From Candidatus Latescibacterota bacterium (GTDB lineage Bacteria > Latescibacterota > UBA2968 > SICM01), in the NCBI GenBank assembly GCA_965217865.1, contig CBDCJO010000002.1:4160001-4224000 (forward strand): a stretch of DNA of 64,000 nt, in the 5' to 3' direction. Numbering within the stretch: the first letter of the stretch is position 1; each line of letters begins with the position of its first letter. Shown here piece by piece: positions 1,141-22,939 of this stretch. The notes beneath the pieces are model-generated. The model worked only from the letters and a program-made list of their open reading frames with translations, was not told where the DNA came from and ran no database searches. A program made the translations under genes and the position numbers.

Positions 1141-1301
1141 TGCAATATCGCGCAGCTTTGCACAAAGGCAAACGCATTTCACAACTGAGATGAGGATATA
1201 AAAACAAAACGAAATTATAATATAACATATTGATATTTATAATCTTGAAGCAATTCAACCCTCTCAAATGGGTGTCCCCAGAGAAATGGCACACGCTTTG
1301 C
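1141..1301 (+). promoter_or_regulatory. sigma54 promoter (TGGCAC-ACGCT-TTGC at 1287-1301) with AT-rich spacer and candidate enhancer (1141-1165)
   Basis: Exact -24/-12 consensus 100 bp upstream of the MMPL gene; the region is homologous to 16848-17020 (-). Confidence 0.8.
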
Positions 1302-1400
1302 GAAAGGGATTGAGCAGCAGATACTCAACCCTGCGAACGCTGAAATTCAACCGTAAACCAGAGGTCTCTTGCAACGGACATCCAACCTCGAGAGCGTTTT

Positions 1401-3716
1401 GTGAACCGCATAGCCAACATCATCGTCCGGTATCCAAAATCCATCATCCTGTGCTGTTCCCTCGTCACCCTGGTCATGGCCTTTGGAATGACGCGCCTGG
1501 AAACCCGTAACAACTACAAGGGTAACCTCCCGGCGAACGACCCGATCATCCGGACCAACGCACGTTTTGAGGAGGTCTTCGGCAACGAACAGATTATGAT
1601 GGTTGCCGTCGAAAGTGAAGCCCTCTTTTCGCCCGCAAGCCTGAAAAAGATCAAACGGATTTCGGACGCCCTGGCAACCGTCGAAGGTGTACCACAAGAC
1701 GGGGTGACCAGCCTCGCCACCCTCCCGGCGTCACAACTCGGCGGCTCACCTCCAGGGGCATCCTCGCTTCTAACAGCACTCCTGGAACATCCCGACGCAA
1801 GCGACACCTATCTTGAACAACTCCTGACCCGGGGTGTCCCCACAGGACGCCTGGTCTCTAAGGATGGGTCCACCGCCCTGATCCTGGTCCGGATCGCTCG
1901 AACCGCCGACCAGACCACAGTCGCTCGGCAGATCCGCGACATCGTCAAGACATTTGAAGGGCCGGAACGGATGTATACAATCGGCGACTTCATCGTGGCC
2001 CAGGAAATCGACGACGGCATCGAAGGCGACCTGCACACCCTCCTGCCCCTGGCGCTGATCCTTGTCGGCTTTTTTGCATCGTTCCGAAACCTGCAGGGCA
2101 TGGCGCTCCCGTTGCTCGTGATCCTGGGTAGCATCGTCTGGACCCTCGGCCTGATGGGCTATCTCGGATTCCACCTGAACGTCGTCACCTCAACCATCCC
2201 CATCCTTCTGGTCGCCACAGCCAGTTCCTATGGCATCCATGTGATCCATCGATACAACGGTGAACCTCATCACAGGGAAACCGCTACCCGCCGCATGCTG
2301 CAGCGGATTGGCCCGCCTGTTCTGTTAACGGGCATCACCTCCGCAATCGGTACGCTGACCCTGCTCCTGTTCCAGGTCACTTCGATCCGGGAATTCGGCA
2401 TCTTTGCGGCGGCAGGCATCTTCTTTGCCATGGTCCTGGCCATCGTTCTGGTCCCCGCCATTCTCACACTTCTAAAGCAACCCCAAAGACAGCGGAACCC
2501 GGATCAGCAAAGACGCTTTTCCGGGAGAGGCGCACTCCTGCACCTGGGCACCTTTTCTCTGAAACACAGACGTTTCGTGCTGGTGATGACGCTTTTGCTC
2601 ATCGCGGGATCGGGTGTCGGAGTGATGCGCATCCGGCTGGGCATCGATCCCGTCAAACTCTTCCCCAAACGACATCCGTTTCAGGAAGCGGCGCAGGTCT
2701 TCAACAACCGCTTTTCCGGATGGCGATATTTCAACATCATGGTCGAGAGATCCGAAGCCAATTCGGTGAAAACCCCGGCGTTTCTTAAGTCGATCCTGAA
2801 CTTTCAGTATGCCGCCGGCCGATTGCAGAAGGTAGGCGACACCCGATCCATTATCGACGCATTCCAGCACATCCATTCGATCGTGCATCCGGAAAAACCT
2901 CTCCCATTTTCGATTCCCGATTCACGGCAGGATATAGAGAACTCTTTTCGTCTCTACGCCGAGGCCAACAGTGGGCGCGGAGGCACCCCATGGATCGACA
3001 AGGACTTTCGGCGAGCGCGAATCACCGTCATGATAACCACGTCCGACCACGAAGAGCAACTGGACCTCTACCAGCGCTTACAGAATCTTGCCCGAACACA
3101 CTTTTCCGGGGACTACCGTGTTGCGTTCGGCGGTTCGGTGCTGCTCTGGATCGCCGGGAATCACTATGTGGCAATCGGCAAGATCTACAACATCGCAGCG
3201 GCCATTCTCTTTGTCTTTGTCTTTTGCGCACTCGCTTTCCGGTCCGCTTCAAACGGGCTCTTAAGTGTCATCCCCCTCGCCATCGCCACGCTGTGTACCT
3301 TTGGTGTGATGGGTTTTTGTGACATCCGCTTGAATATGGCCACGGCCATCATCACCTCGATTGGGGTGGGCGTCGGCGTAGACTTCGCCATTCACTTTTT
3401 GAGCCGGCTGCAGGAAGAGCGGGCAAGGGGACATACCCTGGATGAAGCAACCCGGCGTACCCTGCTTACCGCAGGCAAGGCGATCTGCTTTGACGTGGCC
3501 TCCAATATGTTGGGATTCATCGTTTTCGCCTTCTCCGGGTTCACACCCATTCAAAACTTGGGATGGCTGGTTTCGCTGACCATGGGAACCAGCGCCTTGG
3601 GGACCCTGGTGCTGCTCCCCCCCCTTGTGGCCATCTTCGGCGAAAAGAGAGACCGTCTTTCAGACAGGCCGATGGGGCACCTTGAACCCGAGGAACACCT
3701 CCATGCGGCAACCTGA
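1401..3716 (+). CDS. MMPL/RND-family lipid transporter
   Basis: 771 aa, two repeats of 1 TM + soluble loop + 5 TM; motifs SSYGIHVIHRY and GVGVDFAIHF. Confidence 0.9.
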   Translation: MNRIANIIVRYPKSIILCCSLVTLVMAFGMTRLETRNNYKGNLPANDPIIRTNARFEEVFGNEQIMMVAVESEALFSPASLKKIKRISDALATVEGVPQDGVTSLATLPASQLGGSPPGASSLLTALLEHPDASDTYLEQLLTRGVPTGRLVSKDGSTALILVRIARTADQTTVARQIRDIVKTFEGPERMYTIGDFIVAQEIDDGIEGDLHTLLPLALILVGFFASFRNLQGMALPLLVILGSIVWTLGLMGYLGFHLNVVTSTIPILLVATASSYGIHVIHRYNGEPHHRETATRRMLQRIGPPVLLTGITSAIGTLTLLLFQVTSIREFGIFAAAGIFFAMVLAIVLVPAILTLLKQPQRQRNPDQQRRFSGRGALLHLGTFSLKHRRFVLVMTLLLIAGSGVGVMRIRLGIDPVKLFPKRHPFQEAAQVFNNRFSGWRYFNIMVERSEANSVKTPAFLKSILNFQYAAGRLQKVGDTRSIIDAFQHIHSIVHPEKPLPFSIPDSRQDIENSFRLYAEANSGRGGTPWIDKDFRRARITVMITTSDHEEQLDLYQRLQNLARTHFSGDYRVAFGGSVLLWIAGNHYVAIGKIYNIAAAILFVFVFCALAFRSASNGLLSVIPLAIATLCTFGVMGFCDIRLNMATAIITSIGVGVGVDFAIHFLSRLQEERARGHTLDEATRRTLLTAGKAICFDVASNMLGFIVFAFSGFTPIQNLGWLVSLTMGTSALGTLVLLPPLVAIFGEKRDRLSDRPMGHLEPEEHLHAAT

Positions 3717-5640
3717 GCTTCACAAAACAGAGAGATCGGGATCTCCGCCTGCTGCCTGCCTCTTACTTCCCGAAAACGCTTGGGAAGAAAAGACGGTTTT
3801 GCTATTTTGTTCCATAGTGGTTTTCCGCCCATCAAGTTATTCGATGGTTTTGATGTGGTTTTTTACGAATCATTCAGGATGATATCATGCAGATGACTTG
3901 GCCTCCATCGCATCACTTCGATCCAAGCAACGTTGGCGATCCGGAACGCTACGGTGGAATCGCGTGGACACAGTTCAACGAGCATTTCGAGGGCCTGTTG
4001 AACATCGAGTGGCGAAAGGTGAATGTGGGCACATCTTACCCGTGGTGGAGACGCCTGCTACGCAACGCCATCGTTCATCCAGTCTGGGATATCGTCACCC
4101 GATGGTCCTGGCGAGATGCCACTGAACGTTATATAACATGCGGCACAAAAGACAAGGCGGCCGTCCTGGCCGCCAAAAAAGTCTTCAGCCGGCTATTTGA
4201 GCTGAAGGAACCTTCTGAGATTGCAGAGAGACGCGAAGCGCTGGATGGAGACCTGGCGTGGAAGCAGGTGTTGGGGGAGCTGGGAGCGGCCTTTGGCACG
4301 GGCGGTCCCGTGCAATCCCACTTCGAACCCTATACTGCGCCAGCAGGTCCTGGGAAACGCGTACAGGGAGGTCGCGGGCGGGGCCACTGGCGCACCTACG
4401 ATGTAGCGGATGGGCTGGCGAACAACGATGTGCGGTCGATCTTTCAGGATCGTGAGGGGTATCTCTGGTTCGGCACGTCCGACGGCCTCAGCCGGTATGA
4501 CGGCCAGGAGTTTATCAATTTCACCACCGAAGACGGCTTAGCGGACAATATGATACGGTCGATCTTCCGGGATCGAGATGGGATTCTCTGGTTCGGCACC
4601 CGGGGTGGAGGTGTGAGTCGCTATGACGGTCGGGAATTCATCAACTTCACCACGGAAGATGGCCTGGCGGACAACAGAGTGTATTCAATCATTCAGGATC
4701 GAGAGGGGTATCTCTGGTTCGGCACCTGGGGTGGCGTCAGTCGCTATGATGGCCGGGAGTTTGTCAATTTCACTACGGAAGACGGCTTGGCGCACAACTG
4801 GGTGTGGGCGGCGCTTCAGGATCGAGAGGGGTATCTCTGGTTTGGCACCTATGGCGGCGGCGTCAGCCGGTATGATGGGCAGACGTTTACCACGTTCACG
4901 ACAGAAGATGGGCTGGTGGACAATCGAGTGGTTTCGATTTTTCAGGATCGTGAGGGGCTCCTCTGGTTTGGCATGGCAGCAGTCGAGGTGGGGGGTGCTG
5001 GGGGCGTGAGCCAGTATGATGGACAACACTTTACAACGTTTGTCACAGGAGATATACCCGGGAGCAATCAGGTGTGGTCGATTTTTCAGGATCGAGAGGG
5101 TGCTCTTTGGTTCGGCACCCTGGCCGGTGTATGCCGGTATGATGGGCAGGGGTTTACGACCTTCACCCCACAAGATGGTCTGGTAGCAAACCAGGTGCTC
5201 ACGATTTTTCAGGATCGAGAGGGTGCTCTCTGGTTCGGCACCCTGGGCGGTGTAAGTCGATATGATGTGCAGACCTGGACGATATTTACCACAGGAGATG
5301 GGCTGGGAGACAACACGGTGAGTTCGATTTTTCAGGATCGTAAGGGTGCTCTCTGGTTCGGGACCCCGGGTGGGGTCAGCCGATATGACGGGCAGAGCTG
5401 GACCACTTTCACCACAGAAGACGGGTTGGCGCATAATGCGGTGCAGTCAGTTTTTCAGGATCGAGAGGGTGCTCTCTGGTTCGGCACCCAGGTCGGTGTA
5501 AGCAGATATGATGGGCAGACCTGGATGGCATTTACCACCGCAGGCGGCCTGGCGGACAATTCTGTGCTCTCGATTTTTCAGGATAGGGAAGGAGATCTGT
5601 GGTTTGGCACTGAGGGCGGCGTCAGCCGATATGACGGACG

Positions 5641-5668
5641 GCCCCGTTCGACAAGCTCAGGGCAGGCC
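5641..5668 (+). repeat. REP-like palindromic element inserted in frame in a propeller repeat
   Basis: CCCCGTTCGACAAGCTCAGGGCAGGC adds 8 codons (RPRSTSSG) relative to sister repeats; similar to the intergenic CCCTTCGACAGGCTCAGGACAGGC at 49802. Confidence 0.65.
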
Positions 5669-6380
5669 TGGACAACGTTTACCACGGAAGATGGGCTGGT
5701 TACACGATAAGGTGCAGTCGATGGTACAGGACCGTGAGGGCGGTCTCTGGTTTGCAACAGCCGATGGCTTGAGCCGTTATGACGGTCGGGAGTTTACCAA
5801 CTTCACCACAGAAGACGGAATGGCAGACAACTGGGTATGGGCGGCGCTCCACGATCGGGAGGGTTATCTCTGGTGGGGGTGTGAGCCGGTATGATCCTCT
5901 GGCCCGTTCAGGAGAGACAGAGGGACAATTTATCAACTTCACCACAAAAGACGGGCTGGCGGACAATCAAGTGGTTTCGATTTCTCAAGATCTGCAGGGA
6001 CACATCTGGTTTGGCACCATGAGTGACGGCGTGAGTCGGTATGATGGGCGCTCCTTCCAGGCCATGAGCCGCCGGGACGGTCTTGCGAGCAATACGATAC
6101 GGTCGATTCTCCAGGACCGGGAGGGGAGTATCTGGTTCGGCACCCCGGGCTGCGGTGTGACCCGTTATCGTCCCCTGGCGCCTTCACCTCCTCCGGTTTC
6201 CATCCACACGGTGGTGGCCGACCGCCGCTACCAGGGGATGTCCGAACTGGCGCTTCCGTCTACGGTGGGGCTGATCGCTTTTGAGTTCGGAGCGCAAAGC
6301 TTCAAGACACGTCCGGAAGCGATGGTCTACCGGTATCGGCTGAGAGGCTACGGTGAGGACTGGAAGACCACACACACTAG

Positions 6381-8214
6381 TCCTAAAATAAGCGAATAGG
6401 CTTGTTGAGCGGTGTGTTATACAAGATTTCGGAGCATTTCAGACTTGTGACTTGGTGGAGATGATGTCTGGGCTGTTTTTGTGATTGTTTCGGCATGCGA
6501 TTGTCTAATTAACTGAGTTTGCGGACGTGTTTTAGCCGGGGTGGACGGACTTGTCCCTGTGATGTTACGACGACAGGTGCTGACATGGCAGTCAGGCCGG
6601 TTTGAGCCATCTGATTCTGTTCCAGGCCGGGAAGAAGTCAGTCATCCACCGGTTGTAGCCCAAGACACGATAGATGATCTGTCTTCCCCGGGTCACGATC
6701 TGGCAAGGGATCCAGATCAGATTCTGGAGGAAGGCGCGAAACTTCATTCTCAGAAGTTGATCGCGACGCTCACGCTTTCGGATCATCAACGCGAACCAGG
6801 CTTTGAGGTTCCACGCCAGGGCGGTCATGACCATGTAAGCCCAGTTGCTCATCAGGTTGTCGACGGGCATCCGCATGGCGTTGACCCCGTTCTTGAGTTG
6901 TTCAATCACGTTTTCCTGATCGCACCGTCGATTGGCCAGCCTCACGATTTCCGCGGCCGTAAGATCTTTTCGGGTGGTAATGTAGAAGAAATAGCGCTTG
7001 TCATCGAACAGGGCGTTTTCGCCGCGTTCGACGCTCAGGTTTTTTTCGAGGATCACGAGTCGACAGGTCTTCCTGCATCGAGCAGGACGATACGAAACCC
7101 CGGCAACACGTTCACTGGCAAGTCGGATGTTTTTGAAGCCGCGCTCCCGGATGATCCGGGCTTTCACGTTCTCGCGTTTCTGTCTCTGGGAGGTTTTGAC
7201 CTGGTATTTGGGTTGTCGTTCAAAGGGCTCCCAATCGCTCTGTGACAGGGATTTGGCGATCTTGACCAATCCCCGGTAAGCATCCATGCCGAAGACGAAG
7301 TCGACCTTTTCCGACCAACGATCGAAGTGCCGGGTGAGTGAGAAGCCGGTGTCTCCGCGCAGGCAGATGCGTTTGGCGAAAGGGGCGACCAGCGCGATGG
7401 CGCGATCGATCCACTTTACGGCACCGTCGTGGCTGGGCACATTGCCGGGTCGATTCACAAGAAACAACACCTCCCTGGTGTTCGCCAGAGAGACCACGAG
7501 AGGATGGTATCCCCAGATACCGTTGTATGACAGGGCCATGCCCTGCTTGCGTTCTCCGAGGGTGGTGGCCAGGGTGGCGTCGATGTCGATGAGGGCTTCT
7601 TTGAGTTCGCCCCTGGCGCGCTTTTTCCAGATCCGGGTGCGCACCCGGTTGATGCAATCCATCAACGTCTCGATATCCGATGGCCGGAAACGACGTGTAA
7701 AGTCGCCTGCTGTGGTCGGATCCGGGAGACGCTGAGCGCCCAAAGCGTTCAGGAACGTGGCATCCTGGCGGCGCAGCTCAATGTCTTCAAGGCGTTGACC
7801 ACCAACCAGCGCATTGTAGGCGATGTTCAGAACGTGGTCTGATTCGTGACAGGGCAAATGCACTTTCAAAAGATGAAGATGACGGTCAATCTCTTTCACC
7901 AGCCCAACCCTGCGGACCATGTGGTGAAACGCGCCGATCCCCCCACACGTGATCGCCTCGGCCTTCCCACTTATCTCGTAGTGGATGTTTCCCCCAGACA
8001 TCATAGGCTTGACCTGACTGCACCACTGCTTCCGACGCAAACGACGGACAATTCGTGCTTCCCTGTTCCGAAGAATCTTCCTATATTCTCTCATCTGAAA
8101 TGCCCCTTTTGATGGCCTCTTTTTGTCTTTCACACTACAACTATAGGCCTGAAAACTGGGGCATTTTCAACTTTTTTCTACTAAAACCAAGAAAAATTCA
8201 CGCTTGTATAGGGA
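6381..8214 (-). mobile_element. IS1380-family insertion sequence
   Basis: Imperfect 14-bp TIR (TCCTAAAATAAGCG / TCCCTATACAAGCG); CTAG duplicated at 6377-6380 and 8215-8218; the host frame is restored on removal. Confidence 0.85.
6592..8133 (-). CDS. IS1380-family DDE transposase
   Basis: 513 aa with IDIDAT, GYHPL, LRGDTGF and RCDQENVIEQLK motifs. Confidence 0.9.
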   Translation of the reverse strand: MKDKKRPSKGAFQMREYRKILRNREARIVRRLRRKQWCSQVKPMMSGGNIHYEISGKAEAITCGGIGAFHHMVRRVGLVKEIDRHLHLLKVHLPCHESDHVLNIAYNALVGGQRLEDIELRRQDATFLNALGAQRLPDPTTAGDFTRRFRPSDIETLMDCINRVRTRIWKKRARGELKEALIDIDATLATTLGERKQGMALSYNGIWGYHPLVVSLANTREVLFLVNRPGNVPSHDGAVKWIDRAIALVAPFAKRICLRGDTGFSLTRHFDRWSEKVDFVFGMDAYRGLVKIAKSLSQSDWEPFERQPKYQVKTSQRQKRENVKARIIRERGFKNIRLASERVAGVSYRPARCRKTCRLVILEKNLSVERGENALFDDKRYFFYITTRKDLTAAEIVRLANRRCDQENVIEQLKNGVNAMRMPVDNLMSNWAYMVMTALAWNLKAWFALMIRKRERRDQLLRMKFRAFLQNLIWIPCQIVTRGRQIIYRVLGYNRWMTDFFPAWNRIRWLKPA

Positions 8215-9180
8215 CTAGGCGTGTGGAGTACCAGGATCTCCCAAAAGGAAGCTATACGTTTGAGGTTGTTGCGGTGGACCGGGACCTGGCCTATTCGGAG
8301 GTGGCTGCTACGGTCGCGCTGACCGTGCGTCTGCCTTATGAGCGGATTGGGCTTCTGACAGCCCTGGGTATTGCAGTGGTGCTGATTGCCTGGCAGGCGG
8401 CCCGTATTGTACAGCGAGACCGGAGGCTCCAGGAATCGAATGAGGCCCTGTCTTCGGCCAACAAAGAACTCTTCCAGGCCAACCAGGCCCTCCAGAGAGA
8501 TCGTGCCGTGGAGCGGATCCGAAGGGAAGTACAGGCGATGGAGCAGTCCGCCGACTTCGAGAAAGTCCTCTCGGTGCTTTCTGAAGACTTGAAAGCAGTG
8601 GGCATGTCCTTTAATACCTGCAGCATCGACGTCTTAGATGAACTCGTGGACGACCCCTCGATGGCCTACTTTGAAGACCACGGTTTTCGCTACACCACCT
8701 TCAGCATCGATCCTGAAGGTACGGTCTCGCTGGAGGCCTACCACACCCCGGCGCCGTTTCCACCTGTGGTGCGAGAGACGGTTGAGCGTTTCATTGCGGG
8801 CGAGCCCTGGAGGGGACGCAGTGAACAGACGGTTATCCTGGAAGTGCCTACGGCCAGCTACGGCAGGCTGCGCATCACAGCCCTGGACCGACAAGACTTT
8901 ACCGAAGAAGAGGTGAAACCCTTGCAGGACTTCGCCACGGCCATCGCATTGGGCTATGCCCGGTTCCTGGACTTCAAGACGGTAGAAGCCGCCCAGCAGC
9001 GGGTGATCGAGGAGATGGAGAAGGAACTTCAGGTCGCCCACGATATGCAGATGAGCCTGCTGCCCGAAAGTGCCCCCTCCCTCGAAGGCATCGACCTGTC
9101 GGGCGTCTGCATCCCGGCCAATCACGTCGGCGGCGACTACTATTCCTATGTCTTCCTGGATGATGACAAGACGAAGCTAT

Positions 9181-10706
9181 CAGCCCGTTGAAGAACTACC
9201 TTTCAACGCACATAAACGGAAAAGACGCCTGGAGTGCGGGTCAGATAAATCAAGGTAAGGAGATTGAGCAGGAGACGCTGATAAGAGGTTAAAAAGGTGA
9301 CCGAGGGCAGCAAACGTGATTGTAGGACGAGCAGTAGACGCTGCAAGGCCTTGGCCAGGTCCTGGAGGGCCTTCGGAGTACCTACGCCCATCACTTTGCG
9401 CATGAGCAGAGCCAGGTTGCAGCCCCCGATGTGGATCAGCAAACGCTTGAGGATATTGCCGCGGTCTCTCAAGTGCAACCTGCGCATGCCACCGGTATCA
9501 TATGTGTGAGCGATGGTTCTTTCCACCCGTTCTGCACGACTTCGGCGCAAGGCCTTGCCGCGATCTCCCTTGATCCGGCGTCGATTCGCATATACCGCGG
9601 CCTGCTCATCTCGTCGGCCGTTCCACTTGCGGCGTCCCCGATCCGGTTCTGAAATGTAACTCCGGATGCCGCCTTGCTTCAGACTGGTCAATACATCGTT
9701 GCTATGATATCCTTTGTCCGCAACCACCTCCCGTATACGCTGTCTGTGCAAACGTTTGGCAGCTTTTTCGTCCTTCGCGACCTGCTTGAGATTGAGCTGC
9801 GCCTCGAGCAGCGTCCAGGGCAACGACCCGGTATCTCCTTCATCTGCTCCCGACAACGCCACTGCCACAATGGCATTGGTGTCCAGATCCACCGCGTGCT
9901 CCACCTTGTGCGCCATGTGCGTGCGACCGTCCTTCATCTTAGCGATCTTGGCATCCGGGTCGTGCGGGTGCTCCCAGTCCTGGTTCGATCCCTTCTTCGG
10001 TCGCTTCTTATCGATCTTGGACAAGTCCTCGCGGGTAGGCGTTTCAATGCCCGAGGCCTTGGCCAGATTCTCAAGGAATGCCTGGTAGCCTTCACCCGTG
10101 TCACGGCGTACAATGCTGCGCATCGCGGCGTTGGCCTCCAGTGTCGTAGCATCCACGCCCAACGTCTTCCCCTTCACCAGACCCGCTTTGCACAAGACCC
10201 TCAGGATCCACTTGAAAACCGCTTCGTGAACTTCCAAGGGAAGCCGATGCCGGATGCGAGACAGGCTGGAATGATCCGGGGTCTGTTCGTCAAGGGCATA
10301 CCCCAAAAACCGGCGCAACGTCAGCGAGTCAGATACACGCCATTCGATCCCACGTTCCGAATCAAGTCCCTCGAAATACCCAATCAAAAGCATCCGAAAA
10401 TAAACCCCGGGCGGAATGCCCTTGCGACCCATATGAGGAGCGTAATACCGCTGGCAAAGCCCCTCGACGAACTCGTCGAAGCCGTTCGCCCCCAATACCT
10501 GATTCAGCTTCTCGTAGAACGGATGACCCGGAGATTTCACCAAAGTGTTCGATGCGATGAACAGGTTTTCCTGTCTCTGTCGTCCTCGTTTTCCCATTGC
10601 CATTTGCTCGTCCTCCCTTCTCAGTTTGAACCTGATATATCATAGGACCAAACCACAAGGAAAGACAACAGTCATCTTGGCATAAACGCACTTTTTCAAC
10701 AGGCTG
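9181..10706 (-). mobile_element. IS1182/IS5-like IS, copy 1 (1526-bp core)
   Basis: TIR CAGCCTGTTGAA / CAGCCCGTTGAA; inserted in a CTAG inside the SpoIIE domain. Confidence 0.9.
9203..10603 (-). CDS. DDE transposase (DUF772-like N-terminus; IS1182/IS5-like)
   Basis: 466 aa with PDHSSLSR, VDAT, ADKGYHS and RAERVER motifs. Confidence 0.9.
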   Translation of the reverse strand: MAMGKRGRQRQENLFIASNTLVKSPGHPFYEKLNQVLGANGFDEFVEGLCQRYYAPHMGRKGIPPGVYFRMLLIGYFEGLDSERGIEWRVSDSLTLRRFLGYALDEQTPDHSSLSRIRHRLPLEVHEAVFKWILRVLCKAGLVKGKTLGVDATTLEANAAMRSIVRRDTGEGYQAFLENLAKASGIETPTREDLSKIDKKRPKKGSNQDWEHPHDPDAKIAKMKDGRTHMAHKVEHAVDLDTNAIVAVALSGADEGDTGSLPWTLLEAQLNLKQVAKDEKAAKRLHRQRIREVVADKGYHSNDVLTSLKQGGIRSYISEPDRGRRKWNGRRDEQAAVYANRRRIKGDRGKALRRSRAERVERTIAHTYDTGGMRRLHLRDRGNILKRLLIHIGGCNLALLMRKVMGVGTPKALQDLAKALQRLLLVLQSRLLPSVTFLTSYQRLLLNLLTLIYLTRTPGVFSVYVR

Positions 10707-11304
10707 CTAGGCATTGTCCTGGCTGACGTGTCGGGACACGCGATGCAGGCTGCCACGGTGGCGATGCGCTTCAACGAGATGTTGCGCTATGAAGTGAGGG
10801 AACGGTACAGTGCACAAGAGATCCTAAAAGGACTGGATCGCGCCTTGAAGGGACATATTCCTCCGGAGATGTTCGTGACCAGCGGCATCGGCGTGCTGGA
10901 TGTGTCTCAGAAATCTCTGGCCTTTGCCAGCGCCGGCAACCCGGAAATGTATCACCTTCGGCGCGAGACCGGTGAGGTTCAGACACTTGGTGTGACAGGT
11001 GTGCCGCTGGGGATGCCTTTGGACCTGGGTGGGATGGATGCATTTGGCAGCAAGGAAACGGCGTTGGGGTCCGGAGATGTGGTGGTATTTGTGTCGGATG
11101 GAATCGAGGAGGCGCAAGACAGCACAGGAGATTTTTACGGCCAGGAGCGTCTGATGTCGGTAATTGGTGAACATAGCCGGGAAAGTGCGTCTGCGGAATG
11201 GCTTCGGGATGCCATTGTAGCAGATGTCCGTCAGTTTCTGGGGGATGTGCCTCAGGGAGATGACTTGACTGTGGTCGTCCTGCGTGTCGGATAGGTTTCC
11301 AAGT

Positions 11305-11421
11305 GGGCTTTCAATCACGAAGCAGTTTGCAGAGCTGTTGGGCAGAACGATTGGCGTGAAGAGCGAGGTGGGGGAGGGATCGGTCTTTATCGTGCAGGTC
11401 CCTGTGGTCAACAAGAACTGA
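11305..11421 (+). pseudogene. Vestigial histidine-kinase HATPase_c C-terminus
   Basis: Translates GLSITKQFAELLGRTIGVKSEVGEGSVFIVQVPVVNKN* directly after the SpoIIE stop; no start codon. Confidence 0.7.
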
Positions 11422-11465
11422 GAAACATGAAAGAATATCCCCTCACCTCACCCGTGTTTCACGTC

Positions 11466-11566
11466 ACATAACACGAGCATCTGTGCTGCGCTCCACTTCG
11501 TTTCGCTTGGCTTCGCCCAACCCTCCCAAAAAACACGGGCGGGTTCACAGATGCCAATCGTTAACC
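11466..11566 (+). other. attC-like recombination site
   Basis: ACATAAC...GTTAACC ends with inner inverted repeat GCATCTGTG / CACAGATGC. Confidence 0.6.
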
Positions 11567-11984
11567 AAAAGTTGCTCCCCAACCATCCCGGAAAAGCGCA
11601 TAGCACACAAAAACGTCGCTCGCACGAAAGCTGATCAGATGCCTCGATTTAACACGTCTGCAGATTTCTTTAATGTATGGGGTGAAGTTTTAACACAACG
11701 AGCCAACGATGCAATTGAGAAGTTATCCTCCCTGCCTGGTTCGTGGAAATGGACCTTTATTGGGGGCGCAGCGTTCATAAGTAGTTGGTGGCGGGTATGC
11801 GATTTACTTGCTTGTGGGAAAAGAGCGTAACATCGCTCTCGACCTCGTTGGTATTCTCAGGACCTTTGCTTGTCGCAGGCCTGCTGTTTTTGGTTCCGCT
11901 GCTGTTAAGGGACAAGACACAAGGGGACATTTTTGGGGTGGTTGTGAAAACCATGTACCGGCAGATCGGATTCGAGATAGTCGG

Positions 11985-12346
11985 TTTTATATGAAAAAAC
12001 CGGGTGGACTCCTGTGCGGGGTCAACTGGCCTCAACCTTCGACGTCCGTTTTCCGGCATGGCTAGAGTACCTGTGGTGTTATATCAATTTTCACATTCCG
12101 CACCATATTTCTCCAATTATTCCCTGGTATTATCTCAAGGAAGCCGGTCGCGCCATTCGTCAGGCCTATCCGGCCCACTATCAGGAACAAGGGTTCGCTC
12201 TACGCCACCTGACGTGGTTCTACAGAACACCATTCCTGAAAAAGATTGAAGACAAAGGGTACTATGTGTTCGATGCCTCCCACCTGAAAATAGCATCTGT
12301 TATTATAACCAGTCGTGAACCCACTTTGAACCGGGCGGAGCTGTGA
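11985..12346 (+). pseudogene. Fatty acid desaturase, C-terminal remnant
   Basis: ...GQLASTFDVRFPAWLEYLWCYINFHIPHHISPIIPWYYLKEA contains the third His box; the first two His boxes are absent; stop overlaps the HAD start (GTGA). Confidence 0.7.
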
Positions 12347-13098
12347 ATCCAGGTGCGATCAAGGTTGTTAGCTGGGACGTCGACGGCACGCTCTATTCCG
12401 TCGGACGTATGACGTGGCAGGTCATCTGTCTGTTCATGCGGGAAGTCGCCTGTGGGCGAGGACTTGCGGCCTACAGGGAGCTGGCAGCGTTGCGGCGCTA
12501 CCGGGCGAGAATCGACGCTGCGCGATCGGCCGGCGGGGCCCTCGGCGTAGAGTTGCAGGAGACCTGCCGGCCGGCGCTGTTGAACGTGGAGCAACACTGG
12601 TATGGCCGTGCGATTCGGCAAACCGGCCCAAGGGCGGGTGTCACCGAGCTGCTCACCTTTTTTTCTGAGAGAGACATTCCCCAAGTCACACTCTCGGACT
12701 ATCAGGCGGGGTACAAGCTCGAGTCCCTAGGACTCGCAGATCGATTCGCCTCGACCTATGCAGGGGAGTGCCTGGGGTTCGTGAAGCCCAGTCCAGTGGG
12801 CTTTGAGCGTATCGCCACCGACTTTGGGATTCCCACGGACGGCCTTTTGCACATCGGCGACCGGGCTGACATGGACGGCGCCGGAGCGAGCGCAGCAGGG
12901 TGCCGGTGCCTGATTCTCGGGCGAGATTTTCGGAGCTTTGACGCGCTGCTGAGGGAATTCCAGTCCGCAGCGACTTGTCTTCCCGGTTTCCTGAATCGTA
13001 GACCACGGACCACAGCCAAACCGCTAAAGCCATCGTCCATCGTCATTTTGTTGTTCCAAACGACTCCCACGTGCGCTGATAAAGCGGCAGGAACTTGA
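12343..13098 (+). CDS. HAD-family hydrolase
   Basis: WDVDGTL, KP and HIGDRADMDG motifs. Confidence 0.85.
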   Translation: MNPGAIKVVSWDVDGTLYSVGRMTWQVICLFMREVACGRGLAAYRELAALRRYRARIDAARSAGGALGVELQETCRPALLNVEQHWYGRAIRQTGPRAGVTELLTFFSERDIPQVTLSDYQAGYKLESLGLADRFASTYAGECLGFVKPSPVGFERIATDFGIPTDGLLHIGDRADMDGAGASAAGCRCLILGRDFRSFDALLREFQSAATCLPGFLNRRPRTTAKPLKPSSIVILLFQTTPTCADKAAGT

Positions 13099-14635
13099 AC
13101 TGGGTCTCCCAGGTGTGACGATGTCGAGCGCCGCCTATCCGGTCGACGAAATCGGTGAGTGGCATACGCATGAACCCTACCGGTCCGAGTCGCCTGCTCT
13201 CACGCTTGTCTTTGTACTCGCGGTTCACCTCACCCAGCAGTACGTCGCAGCGCCTGGCCACCTCATCCCCTGAAATCTCAGCACCCCCGCAGGACCCGCC
13301 GATGAGGACGATCTTGTAATGGGGAACCGACTCGCCAGCAGGTTGAGACGGCACACAGGTCAAAAAATCCTCAGACCCAAGCCAGGAAAACGTCTCGCGG
13401 AGCTTCTGAAATACGCTACTCACATGCTCGGCCGTCAGCTTCTCGCCGGTAAAGGAATATTCAAGGCCGCGTCGGCGTTGAAAATGCAGATCGGGCAGTC
13501 CCGCAACATCCCCCCTGCACAGAAAGAGGTCGCCGGTCTGGTAGCGGCGCAATCCGTACGGATCGCTCACAACCATCGCGTATATCTTCCCCACCTGAAG
13601 CCGATCCGCGCTCAGCAGATTCTCAGGCCGGTCCGCCGCGTCCTCCTCGATAAACTCATAGAGCACGCCGCTCGCCAGCGGCAGAAACGCGACGGTATCA
13701 CCGCGAAAGTGGCTCACCGTCTCCACGGTCTCCGTCGACATAGAATACATGGGAATGAGCCGATAGCGCTCGGGCGGAAGATAGGACGCGAGTCGATCCA
13801 GGAACGGCTTGACATAGCCACCCGTCCAGCAGACATAGGCCTCCACCGCCGGCGCGCAAGCCTGCAAAGGAAGCGGCGAATGGCTGGTTGCGATGCGCAT
13901 GAGACGCTCGTTGCTGCCGCGCGAGGCAAGGCGGCGGGCGAGTGTGCGGACCGCAGCATCGAAAGTCTGGGGCTGCTTGCAAAAGTCTCTGACCAGCCTG
14001 GCGCTTTGTTGCCAGTTTGTGGCAAGCTCATCGAGGAAGGTTGAAAGCGTCGAAGGATTGGTGCTATAGAGAACGCCGGGATTTGCGATAGCCAGGATCC
14101 ACAACCGCACAGCCGTCGCTCCGTAAACAGACGCCAGGGCCTGAATTGCCGGATGGCCCTGCGCCCGATACGACGCCTGAAGCGTAGCCAGGTACGGCGG
14201 CAGACGGGTCTCGTCGAGCAGCATGGACGTGAGCGAATCGTCTTTGCTGAGTGAACTGAAAAGGTAGAGGCTCTTGCGCCGAATCGGCAGCGCCCAGTAG
14301 CAGCGGGCAAAAACGCTTAGATAAGTCCATCTGACCGAGCGCAGGCGCCTCTTAGTATAGAGAATGCGTTTGGGGCTGGTGGTCGAGCCCGAGGTCAGGC
14401 CGAACCTTGCGTCGGAACCGGCCCGAGAAGCCGCATTCTGAATGTGTTGCTCAAGCTCGAATCCATAGGACAGGACCGGCGTATCTGCGGTGATCTCGTA
14501 GCGCTGCCTGAGGCGTTTCTGGTTCCAGACAAAGGCGCGTATTTTGATCCGGTGGACGATTTCCAGCGCCAGCCCGAGCCCTGTGAGGCCAAACCCGATG
14601 AGCCAGCGCAGGCAGTCGTTGATTAGGCCTCTCAT
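13043..14635 (-). CDS. GH3-family acyl-acid amido synthetase-like protein
   Basis: LTSGSTTSPKRI P-loop, YSMSTE, YEFIE, GLRRYQTGD, TGEKLT. True start taken as MRGLIN at 14635 (ATGA overlap with the upstream stop), not 15028. Confidence 0.85.
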   Translation of the reverse strand: MRGLINDCLRWLIGFGLTGLGLALEIVHRIKIRAFVWNQKRLRQRYEITADTPVLSYGFELEQHIQNAASRAGSDARFGLTSGSTTSPKRILYTKRRLRSVRWTYLSVFARCYWALPIRRKSLYLFSSLSKDDSLTSMLLDETRLPPYLATLQASYRAQGHPAIQALASVYGATAVRLWILAIANPGVLYSTNPSTLSTFLDELATNWQQSARLVRDFCKQPQTFDAAVRTLARRLASRGSNERLMRIATSHSPLPLQACAPAVEAYVCWTGGYVKPFLDRLASYLPPERYRLIPMYSMSTETVETVSHFRGDTVAFLPLASGVLYEFIEEDAADRPENLLSADRLQVGKIYAMVVSDPYGLRRYQTGDLFLCRGDVAGLPDLHFQRRRGLEYSFTGEKLTAEHVSSVFQKLRETFSWLGSEDFLTCVPSQPAGESVPHYKIVLIGGSCGGAEISGDEVARRCDVLLGEVNREYKDKRESRRLGPVGFMRMPLTDFVDRIGGARHRHTWETQFKFLPLYQRTWESFGTTK

Positions 14636-15891
14636 GTCAGTTCTCGCTGCGCCAGGGCGATCTGCTCTTGGTACATCTCCACCAGGCGCTGGATGTCCCC
14701 GGATGTGAGCAGACCCGGATCGTAGGTGAAGGTGACCCACGTCTGATCCCGAAGGGTCGTGGCGTTGATCGCCACTGCGTAGCGGGCGTGCAGCTGGCCG
14801 ATGAACTCGATCTTTTCCACATGCTGAAAAAGCCTGTCGTCCTGTCCGTCCCACCTTTCGGCGTGGGAAAACACGCCGGTGGTCACATCGACCCAGGGGC
14901 GATTGAGATAGCAGCGCAGGAGCGGAACGCTTGCCCACACGGGCAGGCGTGTAAGCGGGTGGCTCCGGGGAACGGCCCATTCCCCATGCTGCTTGGACCA
15001 AGCGACCTGCCGGCGGATCTCGCGGCACTTGTCGAGCAGCGAGGCGTTATCGGTATACCGGGCGTAGATGCGGATCCGACTGGCGCCATTACCAAACCCC
15101 TCAAACGGCTGCTGACGGATGTTGACCGGCAACAGGAGCCCCACCTTTTGCCTGTGGCTTGTATTGTGCGCGCAGTTCCAGCGGACGAAGACCTCGAGGG
15201 CACACGTGGCCAGCAGATCGTTGTAGGTAAACCCACCGATCTTGCGGGACCGCTCGCGCAAATCGACGGCCGGAACCTCGATGGTGTGCCACCGTCGTGC
15301 ACGCGAACTCCGAGCACGCGGGCTCCACAAATGGTGCGCAGGTCCGAGATAGGAGAACCGGCTCTTTTTCACGGGCGAGGGATGACGGCGCAAAGGGAGT
15401 TCCTGGAAGGGGGAAACCTCGGTCACCGGGCTTTGTTGGCCGTATGCTACCCTGAGCTGATGGCCCAGCCACATCGTTGCGCTCAAATAGTCGGCTACCG
15501 CGTGGTGAAAGCGCGTGACTAGTTTCGCACTGTCGTTGGCGCCGTCTATGATCACGAGCTGTTGCACGGGCACCTGTCGTCGCGGGTTAAAAGGGCCGTC
15601 TATGAAGGCTTCGATGGCCCCGGTGATCGTCTCATCGGAGGTCGCTTCTGCGGCCGCGACGCCAACGGCTGGCTCGGCAAAGTGGGCCCACTGCTTGCCA
15701 TCGATGTACGAGCCCGTCGCCGGATAGCGGTTTCTCGCGCTTCTCGCCCCGGCTTGCAAGGCCTCGATGTTTGGGGCCTTCTTGACGTGAAGCACCAGGG
15801 TGAAGTCGAGGGGGCGCTTGGGGCTGTCCATCACGCACAAGATGAGATCCAGGGGCGACAGACTGGCGGTGTCAGTTAATTGTGGACTCAT
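14632..15891 (-). CDS. Stand-alone condensation-domain / PapA-WS/DGAT-like acyltransferase
   Basis: 419 aa with FHHAVADY (HHxxxD) motif, TYNDLL and PVNIR. Confidence 0.75.
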   Translation of the reverse strand: MSPQLTDTASLSPLDLILCVMDSPKRPLDFTLVLHVKKAPNIEALQAGARSARNRYPATGSYIDGKQWAHFAEPAVGVAAAEATSDETITGAIEAFIDGPFNPRRQVPVQQLVIIDGANDSAKLVTRFHHAVADYLSATMWLGHQLRVAYGQQSPVTEVSPFQELPLRRHPSPVKKSRFSYLGPAHHLWSPRARSSRARRWHTIEVPAVDLRERSRKIGGFTYNDLLATCALEVFVRWNCAHNTSHRQKVGLLLPVNIRQQPFEGFGNGASRIRIYARYTDNASLLDKCREIRRQVAWSKQHGEWAVPRSHPLTRLPVWASVPLLRCYLNRPWVDVTTGVFSHAERWDGQDDRLFQHVEKIEFIGQLHARYAVAINATTLRDQTWVTFTYDPGLLTSGDIQRLVEMYQEQIALAQRELT

Positions 15892-16786
15892 TGCTCTGAG
15901 AATCGGGCCGGATGTCCCGTTGGGGCAGGAATCGCTGCCACCAGCCGGTCGGCGTGTCCTCCACGTAATTCTTCAGTTCGATCCAGGTGAGCTTGGGCTG
16001 CAAGTGGTGTAGCCGGTGCATCGAGAGACCCAAAGAGAACCAGTACATGAGTCGGCCGTAGTAGTTGTGGGAACGCGATTCGGCACAACCGGTTGAAAAC
16101 CCCTCGTGGGTCTTGAAGGCGAAGGGGTACCACAGAAGGATTGAGACAAGGACCAGCGCGGGGACCATGCCCCAAAACAGGCGGGACGGGCCCACAAACG
16201 CCAGGATGATGCCATACACTGCGAAGATCCCGAGGTAGTTCAGCACCAGATCGACCACATCCTGTTTTTTGATGCGGCCACGCTTCATCAGCCAGAAGAA
16301 CCACTGATGGGGCATGGCAATGGCGCGCAATGGCAATTCCAGGACATGGCGCGGCTTCATAAAATGATCGGGATCCTTGCCCGGGATATTCGTGTTGGCG
16401 TGATGCAAGCGATGGGTCTTCCTGAAATTCGTGAAGGGAACCATGCTGGGGAGCAAGGCGAGGCGTCCCCACGAGAAGTTGGCCGCCTTCGTACGGCCCA
16501 GATGGCCGTGGGTACCTTCATGAGCCATGACGGTACCGATGAACATAATGTAGGTCCGGAACAGCACGTCGATGACGTATAGGAAGGGATTCGAGGGCTG
16601 TAAGAAGAGCGGGCCAAACGAGGCCACGACGACCGCGCAGATCACCAACCGACTGAGCAAGTAGACCTGAGAGCAGGTCCAACGGGTCCGAATGCTCGTG
16701 TCTTCCACGGTGCTAATAGAATCCCTCGTAAGTTGTCTCCTTCCACAGGTGGTCATAAACGACAACAACTGTCTTATGGATCTCAT
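15872..16786 (-). CDS. Membrane fatty acid desaturase family protein
   Basis: His boxes HEGTH, HRLHH and HRLHH with TM segments. Confidence 0.88.
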   Translation of the reverse strand: MRSIRQLLSFMTTCGRRQLTRDSISTVEDTSIRTRWTCSQVYLLSRLVICAVVVASFGPLFLQPSNPFLYVIDVLFRTYIMFIGTVMAHEGTHGHLGRTKAANFSWGRLALLPSMVPFTNFRKTHRLHHANTNIPGKDPDHFMKPRHVLELPLRAIAMPHQWFFWLMKRGRIKKQDVVDLVLNYLGIFAVYGIILAFVGPSRLFWGMVPALVLVSILLWYPFAFKTHEGFSTGCAESRSHNYYGRLMYWFSLGLSMHRLHHLQPKLTWIELKNYVEDTPTGWWQRFLPQRDIRPDSQSNESTIN

Positions 16787-16847
16787 GGCTTATCTCCTTC
16801 TTAACGTGGACATCTGTATGCGTCTTTTTTCTTGTTAACAGGAGAAT

Positions 16848-17020
16848 GCAAATCGTGAGCCATTTCCCTTAGGGCACCCATTTGAGAGGGTTGGTTTTGT
16901 TTTAAGCTTATAAAATTTAATATCTTATAATATAATTTCGTTTTGTTTTTATATTCTCATCCCTCCTGAGTCGCATCGTTGGGGGATTTTTGTTGTTGCG
17001 CAAAATTGCGCATTATTGCA
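16848..17020 (-). promoter_or_regulatory. sigma54 promoter (TGGCTC-ACGAT-TTGC, 16862-16848) with AT-rich spacer and palindromic enhancer candidate TGCGCAAAATTGCGCA (~16997-17012)
   Basis: GG-N10-GC spacing ~60 bp upstream of the desaturase; homologous to 1141-1301; adjacent to the bEBP gene. Confidence 0.8.
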
Positions 17021-17067
17021 TGATTGTTACGCAAGATCTCGTGAACGCTTGCACCTGGGGGGACACG

Positions 17068-19074
17068 ATGGCCAAACGGACCGCTTCTACTCAGAAGGTT
17101 GTCGAACCCGGTGTTCTGCAACGGCTTCGCAGGGCCGTACAAACCAGTGGTTTGACCGCTGATATTTCTTCCAAAGGCACGCTGACACAGCAGATTCTGG
17201 TGACCGGTCGAGTTGCACAAACCACGGTCAACTACCTGAGCTCTCTTAATCCGGCCGCAGGACAGAACCTGGCCGAAGAGCTTCAGGCGCTTGCCAGCTC
17301 CGAGGAATTCGAATTGCTCATGGAGGGCAGGGGATATACCTTCTTCCACGTTGTCCAGTTTCTCTATGAGTTTGCCAAACAGTATGCCGGTTTACCCGAC
17401 GTTCATGCTTTTTGTGTCGGCGTGGGAAGGGCCGGAGGGGGACTGCAAATAAGACCTGAAACAGACATCATCAGCCTCATCCGTCTGGTGGTTACGGCCA
17501 TGCCTGCCGCCGAGGATCAACACAGCATCGGGTTGTTGGTCCAGTCGCTGGCACCGTTGATGCTGGACAAGGTTTTCGTCACCGGCGACTTTCATATCGA
17601 GGTGCTTCAAGAGCAGGAGGACCGGCTCAGGGTCTCGCTTGAATACGCTGATGGAGGCCAGGTAGAAACCTATCTTAAAGCGTTCGGGCTGGAGAGAGAT
17701 ACCGGGACTTTCTTCTTAAATTCTGCGCTGCAGATTCAGGGGACCATAGAGGTGGGATTGCGCACGCTTGCGCAAAATATGAGGCGCTATATGAAGATGA
17801 AAGTCCTTGTTGAGGATAGACATAAGAAGGATCTGGAGGAGATCGAACAGACCTGTTCCTGTGCCTGGACGATTACCTGGAGGCCTGAGATTCGACTGCG
17901 CCGGCTAACCGGTCCAGACAAGATCCTGGCCCAGGGGCGCACGATCTACGAGACCCTGCATCGGAGGGATTTAGAGTATTTCCAGGAACGGATCAAAACC
18001 CTGGAGATGCGGGTGCAGGCCTTAGAGGAGGGAGATCACTTCCACGAGTTGATCGGCAAGAGTCTCGAGATGCGTCAGGTCTATCGGACGATCCAGCAGG
18101 TGGCGGCATCCGATCTGACGGTGTTGATCCGGGGGGAGACCGGGACGGGCAAGGATCTGGCGGCGGTGGCGATCCACGAGAGCAGTTCGCGCAGGGATCG
18201 GCCTTTTGTGGCGGTGAACTGTGCGGCGTTCCTCGAGACGCTTTTGGAGAGCGAACTCTTCGGATACGAGAAAGGGGCATTTACCGGGGCGGATAGGACG
18301 AAACCGGGGCGGTTCGAACTGGCCGATGGGGGCACGCTGTTCCTGGATGAGGTGGGCGATATTCCGATTACGACACAGGTCAAGCTGCTCCGGGTGCTGG
18401 AGACCCAGGCTTTTGAACGCGTGGGGGGAACAGAGACGATCCAGACCGATGTGCGTATCATTGGGGCAACCCATCGGGATCTAGAGGATATGATTCCCAG
18501 GGGAGAATTCCGTGAGGATTTTTATTTTCGCCTGAATGTGCTGCCTGTGAACATGCCCCCTTTAAGGGCGCATCGAGAGGATATTCCGATGCTTGCACAA
18601 CGCTTTCTGGAGCGGAGTGCAAGACGTTCCGGCAAAACGATCAAGGGATTTTCGCGCGGGGCAATGCAACGGCTTCTGAACCATTCGTGGCCGGGGAATC
18701 CCCGGGAGCTTCAGAATGTTATCGAACGGGCGGTTGTGGTTTATGCGACGGGGTCGACCATCACAGAACCCAATATCTCTCAAGCCCTGGGCATCCAGGA
18801 ACGCAGGGAGCCGTCGGCTGCGTTGAATCTAAGGCACCAGCAGGTTCTGGAGGCGATTGGTCAGGCGGAAGGATGTACGGTTGAGGACTTGATGGACCGC
18901 GTCGCATCTGCGGTGCGAGGGGGAGGCCGCCGTTCCCGGAGGACGCTTCAAAACGATCTGAGGAAGCTGACGGAAATGGGATACCTCACCTGGCATAAAC
19001 AGGGGAGCGCCCGGTATTATATGGTGACTTCAGAGGGACAGGAAGTGCTTCAAATATATTCGGATCGGTCGTAA
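17068..19074 (+). CDS. sigma54-dependent transcriptional activator (bEBP) with unrecognised N-terminal domain and winged-helix C-terminus
   Basis: GETGTGKD Walker A, ESELFG..GAFTGA, FLDEVGD, WPGNPREL; likely start at MAKRT after GGGGA. Confidence 0.92.
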   Translation: MAKRTASTQKVVEPGVLQRLRRAVQTSGLTADISSKGTLTQQILVTGRVAQTTVNYLSSLNPAAGQNLAEELQALASSEEFELLMEGRGYTFFHVVQFLYEFAKQYAGLPDVHAFCVGVGRAGGGLQIRPETDIISLIRLVVTAMPAAEDQHSIGLLVQSLAPLMLDKVFVTGDFHIEVLQEQEDRLRVSLEYADGGQVETYLKAFGLERDTGTFFLNSALQIQGTIEVGLRTLAQNMRRYMKMKVLVEDRHKKDLEEIEQTCSCAWTITWRPEIRLRRLTGPDKILAQGRTIYETLHRRDLEYFQERIKTLEMRVQALEEGDHFHELIGKSLEMRQVYRTIQQVAASDLTVLIRGETGTGKDLAAVAIHESSSRRDRPFVAVNCAAFLETLLESELFGYEKGAFTGADRTKPGRFELADGGTLFLDEVGDIPITTQVKLLRVLETQAFERVGGTETIQTDVRIIGATHRDLEDMIPRGEFREDFYFRLNVLPVNMPPLRAHREDIPMLAQRFLERSARRSGKTIKGFSRGAMQRLLNHSWPGNPRELQNVIERAVVVYATGSTITEPNISQALGIQERREPSAALNLRHQQVLEAIGQAEGCTVEDLMDRVASAVRGGGRRSRRTLQNDLRKLTEMGYLTWHKQGSARYYMVTSEGQEVLQIYSDRS

Positions 19075-19149
19075 CCAGCTTAGGCTTGTACAAAACGCCC
19101 GTTGGGGTTTTGCCCCACTATGTTGGTTTCTCGGAATCGTGCCAATGCC

Positions 19150-22825: not shown

Positions 22826-22939
22826 CACCCCTTCCGAAGGGCTTGCATGAACACCATGCCATTCCCTTCTGGTATCAATGCAACTTGGGCTCAGGTGTCG
22901 AAAATGGAAATTCCGTAACAAGGTCCTAACCTGGGTTGG

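Follow-up and report, generated by a model that had tools for sequence, protein, structure and literature searches.

The window analysed here, a 64,000-nucleotide stretch of a Candidatus Latescibacterota genome (contig CBDCJO010000002.1, positions 4,160,001 to 4,224,000), carries three overlapping genes that encode a membrane di-iron enzyme of the fatty acid desaturase family (desA), a stand-alone enzyme with a condensation-domain fold (AT), and a GH3-like adenylating enzyme. This desA-AT-GH3 triad is a conserved biosynthetic unit. By analogy with the OlsH/OlsI/OlsG system of the planctomycete Singulisphaera acidiphila, it may operate as a carrier-free pathway to an amino-acid lipid, a reading to which we assign a probability of roughly 45%. 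An earlier sequence-only reading had described these genes together with a remnant of a second desaturase (desB), a HAD hydrolase, an MMPL-family exporter and a sigma54 activator (bacterial enhancer-binding protein, bEBP), and had proposed that they make and export an unsaturated acyl amide or ester. Open reading frame (ORF) calling and family scans recovered all of these genes at the given coordinates and in the families named, and the suspected translational coupling is borne out by overlaps of 20 nt (desA/AT) and 4 nt (AT/GH3); desB and HAD overlap by 4 nt as well. The inventory was incomplete in that it overlooked a methyltransferase gene (MT) in the plus-strand operon.

The conserved triad and its enzymes

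With a profile of 35 AT homologues as query, the GTDB genomes yielded 73 loci in 68 genomes, for which locus maps were drawn by tblastn. Judged by title, 68 of the loci belong to Acidobacteriota or its subgroups, one to Latescibacterota and one to Myxococcota, and three are unclassified. desA lies directly upstream of AT in 67 loci and GH3 directly downstream in 69, and all ten missing neighbours fall at contig ends. Co-occurrence in other gene neighbourhoods had been proposed as a check on the sequence-only reading, and for the triad it is far above chance; many of the loci stem from related Pyrinomonadaceae, and the counts overstate their independence. Fusions, each known from a single record, join desA to AT (P0041), desB to desA and AT to GH3 in one operon with HAD (L081), and MMPL to HAD in a gene facing the triad (L079), this MMPL being only 24% identical to that of the window. 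Among the accessory genes, HAD is present in 30 loci (25 of the 49 with at least 5 kb beyond GH3), desB in nine and MT in seven. MMPL was found in one locus and the N-terminal domain of the bEBP in none, so these two are not conserved partners of the triad.

Only 3 of the 168 genomes of the phylum to which the window belongs contain AT, which suggests that the triad was acquired horizontally there. In a FastTree phylogeny of GH3 (35 triad sequences and four outgroups), the window and its closest titled relative, locus L027 of another Candidatus Latescibacterota genome (G041), fall among Pyrinomonadaceae-type sequences; weak support and a very long outgroup branch do not fix the donor. The pathway genes are present in single copy in the 6.43-Mb genome. 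Two more genes of the FA_desaturase family lie elsewhere in it (G000:C2:4242020-4242826 and 3364179-3364835).

The GH3 protein scores above the cut-offs of both PF03321 (25.8 bits) and PF23571 (43.9 bits), and an NCBIfam scan gave no match for GH3 or for MT. Its motifs TSGST, YxMxTE and GLxRYQTGD vary little or not at all among 29 homologues and, including the essential motif I serine, match those quoted for plant GH3s and for OlsH in the OlsH report (PMC12493201). The 18 best Foldseek matches listed for an AlphaFold 2 model (pLDDT 83) are all plant GH3s, with TM scores up to 0.66 and 14-16% identity. According to the same report, OlsH needs neither CoA nor acyl carrier protein (ACP) to form N-acyl-ornithine from a free fatty acid and ATP, prefers non-hydroxylated acids and was silent in living E. 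coli; its operon includes O-acyltransferase and N-methyltransferase genes, the α/β-hydrolase OlsI attaches the second chain, and OlsG methylates the product (PMC12493201).

For AT, the model (pLDDT 89) has the two-lobed, CAT-like fold of condensation domains, with Z scores of 20-35 to C domains. Of 208 homologues with a length of 340 aa or more, 202 have the HHxxxD motif; a tyrosine stands at the G position of HHxxxD(G) in the window protein and in eight of the 208, and the family comprises 126 representatives at E values up to 1e-30. Searches with AT against Pfam and, using the single protein, against PDB sequences were empty, the WS/DGAT model TIGR02946 gave 36.7 bits against a cut-off of 309.95, and the ESM Atlas returned only unnamed or partly Condensation clusters. 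The PapA-like acyltransferase of the sequence-only reading holds as an HHxxxD condensation fold, but acyl transfer is only a prediction, since the closest solved fold is that of the dehydratase AzeD (see below). A motif scan of ORFs of 60-120 aa near the triad found no plausible ACP-like candidate, and one implausible match, although a carrier might be supplied in trans.

The histidine boxes of desA (H89/H93, H125/H128/H129 and H257/H260/H261) are invariant in 16 sequences, and a PDB sequence search gave no match. Such boxes do not distinguish a desaturase from a hydroxylase, and desA may be either. A di-iron enzyme able to hydroxylate an amino lipid is exemplified by OlsE (PMC12971839).

In the pathway that we propose, a free fatty acid would be adenylated by GH3, which would then couple it to an amino acid as an amide. 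The resulting N-acyl amino acid would be hydroxylated or desaturated by desA, and a second chain would be attached by AT. Tailoring of the product would fall to MT, desB and HAD, and its export to MMPL at loci that have it. In the lineage of the window, the MMPL exporter and three sigma54 promoters would have become attached, probably under the adjacent bEBP.

Predicted tailoring genes, exporter and sigma54 promoters

In the relative G041, the plus-strand operon runs promoter, MT, full desB (a 400-aa ORF) and HAD, converging on GH3. Compared with it, the window retains MT residues 14-69 (3896-4063) and desB residues 292-400 (11981-12343) and has lost MT residues ~70-301 and desB residues ~1-291; in place of the missing ~1.6 kb stands a 7.9-kb block made up of sensor fragments and two transposases. 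The sequence-only reading was right that the operon is broken, but the block spans 4064-11980 instead of starting at 3.75 kb, and more than an insertion took place: segments of MT and desB were replaced. An assembly artefact was considered and rejected: contigs from runs X2 and X3, of two studies, span both junctions without a single difference, which shows the break to be real. No RNA data set carrying the region was listed, which does not bear on its expression. MT and desB are destroyed in this genome, and therefore at most the triad product would be made there. A chimeric ORF (3887-5710), downstream of the MMPL promoter, joins the MT remnant in frame with an unrelated segment and a Reg_prop propeller.

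An unbroken arrangement was found in sequencing run X7. A single 10,893-bp contig carries window positions 2003-3805 with 13 differences, then MT and desB-HAD matching L027, and then window positions 12317-19096 with 205 differences and 23 gaps. This relative is ~97% identical to the window and has the order MMPL-MT-desB-HAD facing GH3-AT-desA, followed by the bEBP. In a check limited to gaps, no frameshifting one was listed in its MT or desB. MMPL is likewise joined to MT past the break point on a 2,331-bp contig from a different study (run X8).

Some MT homologues exceed the cut-offs of Pfam Methyltransf_25/12, and a PDB sequence search with MT gave only weak matches to S-adenosylmethionine (SAM) methyltransferases. 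A metagenome scan with MT yielded 43 loci, 24 of them at 46% identity or more and 19 more distant. GH3, HAD or desB adjoins MT in 19 of the 24 closer loci (several of the 19 are near-duplicates) and in none of the 19 distant ones. The best models for desB are Bacillus-type desaturases, below cut-off. MT, desB and HAD probably form an optional set for tailoring that accompanies this GH3 subfamily.

Two further associations were seen around these genes. A ~240-aa protein always adjoins desB in L063, L067-L069, L072, L076, L153, L156, L159, L164 and L168, is fused to it in L076 and is absent from the window lineage; it had no Pfam or PDB match that would confirm a likeness to SCP2, and stays unassigned. 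Near the cluster, L073, L074, L153 and L154 have a PlsC-type acyltransferase beside, or fused to, a Peptidase_C92 domain.

The promoter regions of MMPL and desA (1189-1301 and 16961-16848) are 84% identical over 114 bp (E 4e-28), as the sequence-only reading had noticed, and no further copy of this homology was found across the genome. Both contain TGGC-N7-TTGC (1287+ and 16862-), and ~150 bp upstream of each sigma54 site lies a 25-bp element of GCAA-like repeats with a 10-bp period. Searching the genome for the two-element pattern with up to four mismatches gave a single extra site (853-), 149 bp ahead of a third sigma54 site (704-) that precedes a divergent gene starting at 365-, which adds a third promoter of the same type. 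The product of that gene may resemble MipA/OmpV. Two of the three promoters also have sites like those of integration host factor (IHF).

With -24/-12 sites, a candidate activator site 100-200 bp upstream, a bEBP with GAFTGA and an RpoN encoded in the genome, all features of a sigma54 regulon are present at the sequence level. The proposed co-regulation is therefore likely, and the three promoters are probably driven by the adjacent bEBP, which most likely starts at ATG 17068, the point at which its orthologues start. The triple-repeat pattern occurs upstream of 8 of 14 bEBP homologue regions in other genomes and in 0.5% of random windows, figures to be read with the pattern having been tuned after the sequences were seen and with related regions not being independent. 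Most simply, the triple GCAA repeat would be the binding site of this bEBP family (window 17068-18030; L101-L123), members of which usually have it ahead of them, often with a divergent sigma54 promoter. In genome G094, a sigma54 site also lies ~100 bp before desA.

The bEBP N-terminal domain has no NCBIfam, Pfam or ESM Atlas assignment (the Atlas was queried with homologue P0251). Within the phylum, 18 of 168 genomes have it, and 39 database proteins contain it. In G105 it is fused to SpoIIE instead (P0266, L120). The suggestion that the bEBP senses the pathway product found no support, given the lack of this domain in the 73 triad loci.

MMPL and the bEBP look like local recruits, judging from their distribution. 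It is quite possible that both, together with the promoters, are unrelated passengers of rearrangement and that the pathway consists of the triad with or without MT, desB and HAD, which would be compatible with every chemistry considered below. MMPL orthologues lie in other lipid-gene contexts: that of G040 (72% identity; L112, L141; C1:2273000-2287000) and an orthologous bEBP flank a cluster of formyltransferase-like, AMP-binding, UbiA and DUF3419 genes, and that of G041 (69%), 1.3 Mb from the triad, neighbours DAGK-like, kinase-like, Omp85 and PlsC genes. A third, partial orthologue (74%) is in G094. The G040 cluster also has a membrane protein gene with a sigma54 site upstream. MMPL was found in none of the 43 MT loci, and no relative turned up when metagenomes were scanned with the MMPL of the window. 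bEBP orthologues in the L101-L123 region set face varied genes, AT is present in only 2 of the 18 genomes with an N-domain match, and the bEBP of G041 is a 53-residue remnant 0.63 Mb away. On the other hand, the X7 contig joins MMPL to MT, desB and HAD, L079 has a fusion of the pathway HAD with an unrelated MMPL, and the promoter, leader and first codons of the G041 MT gene are like those of MMPL, suggesting a deletion of MMPL in G041.

Weighing the chemistry

The best indirect evidence that GH3 acts on fatty-acyl substrates comes from the gene content of four sister clusters (L160 and L169-L171), which contain a related GH3 (41% identity for L171) and the same MT. A 2-oxoacid_dh-type acyltransferase is present in L160, L169 and L170, a type I polyketide synthase (PKS) in L160 and L171, and an AMP-binding enzyme, HAD and an α/β-hydrolase in L169-L171. 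An hhalign comparison of the AT family with their 2-oxoacid_dh-type acyltransferase gave no similarity. The sister clusters possibly represent a second, undescribed GH3 lipid pathway.

For the product class, the OlsH analogue (PMC12493201) supports a lipid amide or ester as the sequence-only reading had proposed. Several observations weigh against the Ols-like pathway. No lipid from these bacteria has been tied to the genes, whose activities are predicted. MMPL adjoins the triad in just one of the 73 loci, and G041 keeps the triad, MT, desB and HAD without an adjoining MMPL. GH3 is very divergent (Pfam GH3 E 7.6e-6), and inactivation of the Legionella lol1 GH3, the one other bacterial GH3 for which a test turned up in the literature, left the product of its cluster unaffected (PMC5640695). 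What a HAD phosphatase would contribute to an amino lipid devoid of phosphorus is not obvious. In NCBIfam, desA scores best, though far below cut-off, against carotenoid hydroxylase/ketolase models, and the best structural match of AT is a dehydratase.

GH3 might only activate the acid, as adenylate or CoA thioester, and AT would then form the single amide or ester bond in the manner of a carrier-free condensation-adenylation (C-A) module, giving a diffusible mono-acyl signal or surfactant; this comes near to what the sequence-only reading proposed. The AT::GH3 fusion of L081 has the C-A order, AT matches mostly C domains of non-ribosomal peptide synthetases (NRPS) and keeps both histidines, and the cluster of this lineage includes an exporter. 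However, the characterised GH3s, both of plants and OlsH, finish the amide bond themselves (PMC12493201), no carrier protein was found near the triad, and a signalling loop is unsupported with the bEBP absent from the 73 loci. We regard this division of labour as unlikely.

Less likely still, AT could be a dehydratase: desA would hydroxylate the N-acyl amino acid and AT would remove water to give an enamide or dehydro-amino-acid lipid. AzeD ranked first in both structure searches (Z 35.3, root-mean-square deviation 3.2, 396 aligned residues, 13% identity), 4.5 Z units above the runner-up (30.8), with the ester-forming WS/DGAT and PapA5 at 25.9. AzeD is itself a stand-alone C protein, one whose reaction is the dehydration of a free molecule (bioRxiv 10.64898/2026.07.17.738954), and N-acyl dehydrotyrosines are known products (PMC7293339). 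The identity is low, however, AzeD has PHxxxDG where AT has two histidines, and it was not listed in a PDB profile search with the AT family alignment; the high Z may reflect a lobe opening common to stand-alone proteins. Within the C-standalone clade, the first histidine varies in only about a third of members (bioRxiv 10.64898/2026.07.17.738954).

Tailoring of a carotenoid or other isoprenoid by desA oxygenation and subsequent acylation is very improbable. The best-model scores that point to it (CrtR for desA, 53 of 475 bits; CrtR and CrtW for the L027 orthologue, 41 of 350 bits) reach only roughly one tenth of the thresholds, and the recurring neighbours scanned at the 73 triad loci include no carotenoid gene.

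Locus layout, related systems and significance

HAD (+) converges on GH3 (-), and the bEBP (+) is divergent from desA (-) (Table 1). The window is an IS-rich, decaying region: the same 466-aa transposase ORF occurs five times in the 64 kb (9203-10603, 27140-28537, 35852-37249, 56623-58020 and 61025-62422), along with other insertion sequence (IS) elements. Downstream of the bEBP, a gene for a TonB-dependent receptor (20122-22921) is split into two overlapping ORFs by an apparent frameshift and is adjoined by a C-terminal fragment of prolyl-tRNA synthetase (19247-19645).

Table 1. Positions of features in the window, with the basis of each assignment
Feature	Position	Strand	Basis or remark
Divergent gene, 5' part, predicted outer-membrane protein	1..365	-	ORF; extends beyond window edge
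Third-promoter sigma54-type site	690..704	-	Pattern match
Triple GCAA-type repeat, 10-bp period, candidate bEBP site	829..853	-	149 bp before sigma54 site
Triple GCAA-type repeat, candidate bEBP site	1141..1165	+	146 bp before sigma54 site
IHF consensus match	1223..1235	-	Pattern match
Plus-operon sigma54-type site	1287..1301	+	TGGC-N7-TTGC
MMPL/HAE3-type RND transporter, 771 aa	1401..3716	+	Pfam MMPL E 3.9e-43; TIGR00921 below cut-off
Class I SAM-methyltransferase-like 5' remnant, ~60 codons	3887..4063	+	82% identity to residues 14-69 of full L027 gene
Foreign block: Reg_prop / Y_Y_Y / SpoIIE sensor pieces and two transposase genes	4064..11980		Family scans
Transposase genes inside foreign block	6592-8133, 9203-10603	both -	
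Desaturase B 3' remnant, residues 292-400 of L027 400-aa ORF	11981..12346	+	FA_desaturase
HAD hydrolase, DxDGT and GDxxxD motifs	12343..13098	+	C-terminus ~40 aa longer than that of L027
GH3-like adenylating enzyme, 530 aa	13043..14635	-	Pfam GH3/GH3_M, motifs, plant GH3 fold match
Stand-alone condensation-domain-fold enzyme (AT), HHxxxD, 419 aa	14632..15891	-	Fold match; no Pfam match
Desaturase A (desA), membrane di-iron FA_desaturase family	15872..16786	-	Invariant His boxes
Minus-operon sigma54-type site	16848..16862	-	TGGC-N7-TTGC
Triple GCAA repeat, candidate bEBP site	16996..17020	-	158 bp before sigma54 site
Sigma54 activator (bEBP): ~320-aa N-terminal domain and AAA+ with GAFTGA	17068..19074	+	Family scans

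Several known systems share parts of this arrangement. Mycobacterial PapA/MmpL modules place an enzyme of the HxxxD acyltransferase fold near an MMPL protein for acylation and export. The fold of PapA5 is related to that of AT (Z 25.9), but the triad loci lack PKS and ACP genes and linkage to MMPL is rare. Plant GH3s (JAR1, GH3.5, GH3.6 and GH3.12) have the fold and nucleotide motifs of the triad GH3, yet they are only 14-16% identical to it, and the triad GH3 is encoded in a bacterial operon. Another GH3 subfamily occurs in 21 of 168 genomes of the phylum. At the loci examined (L023-L026: G056, G120, G158 and G039) it lies beside an enolase-family gene, in some with an LCM-type methyltransferase, P450 or HAD, and its 857-aa form is fused to FA_hydroxylase.

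The closest analogue is OlsH/OlsI/OlsG. In motifs, size and gene context it resembles the triad locus: both have a bacterial GH3-like enzyme of similar length (526 and 530 aa) that carries the three nucleotide motifs, both group it with genes for a SAM methyltransferase and for an enzyme of acyltransferase type, and both lack a carrier protein. In contrast, the Ols acyltransferase is an α/β-hydrolase whereas AT has a condensation fold and the recurring neighbours of the 73 triad loci include no α/β-hydrolase, which places the triad outside that system, and the genes described here add one or two di-iron enzymes, HAD and, in the window, MMPL, in Acidobacteriota and Latescibacterota hosts. A 2026 review describes the OlsHI pathway as identified only in S. 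acidiphila, and its passages on the subject do not mention condensation enzymes (PMC12971839). AzeD (PDB 8S6L; C-standalone clade) likewise has a stand-alone condensation fold, but AT has no NRPS in its neighbourhood and is paired with GH3 and a desaturase. The legionellol cluster contains a bacterial GH3 (lol1) in a lipid-amide surfactant cluster with an exporter, although that cluster also encodes ketosynthases, CoA ligases and an ACP. Its product did not depend on the GH3 (PMC5640695). The stieleriacine cluster is a proposed N-acyl amino acid pathway with a desaturase, methyltransferase, regulator and transporters, but it uses ACP-dependent N-acyl amino acid synthases in place of a GH3 or C-fold enzyme, and its assignments are postulated (PMC7293339). 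Ether-lipid (elb) clusters were also considered; the literature checked on elb had no GH3/auxin or condensation terms.

Neither the triad nor the same gene set is described as a characterised pathway in the literature searched, a scope that left out most subscription journals and bioRxiv supplements. The GH3-centred unit is real, conserved and uncharacterised, a variant of the OlsH-like kind. New here are the extended cluster, its intact relative, the link to the methyltransferase, the probable three-promoter regulon and the structural match to AzeD. Tentatively, and with some doubt, it may constitute a separate carrier-free route to a new class of amino-acid lipids. Such a route would pair a divergent GH3 with a stand-alone condensation-fold enzyme for a two-step amide/ester assembly, fed by di-iron oxidases of its own; it would be widespread in uncultured Acidobacteriota and, in one Latescibacterota lineage, placed under an MMPL exporter and a bEBP that reads triple GCAA repeats and has an undescribed sensor domain.

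The partly destroyed copy in the window is a poor template for the tailoring genes, of which L027, L153 and L159 have intact copies. The complete set for tailoring and export can be read from the intact relative, and a candidate binding site for the bEBP family comes from the three promoters. OlsH is the only bacterial GH3 with a demonstrated function in the literature searched, and its discoverers expect homologues to make other amino lipids (PMC12493201). The triad is small, apparently carrier-free and present in at least 68 uncultured genomes, and offers a direct test of that expectation. It would also reveal the role of a stand-alone condensation-fold enzyme beside a GH3, be it acyl transfer or AzeD-like dehydration.

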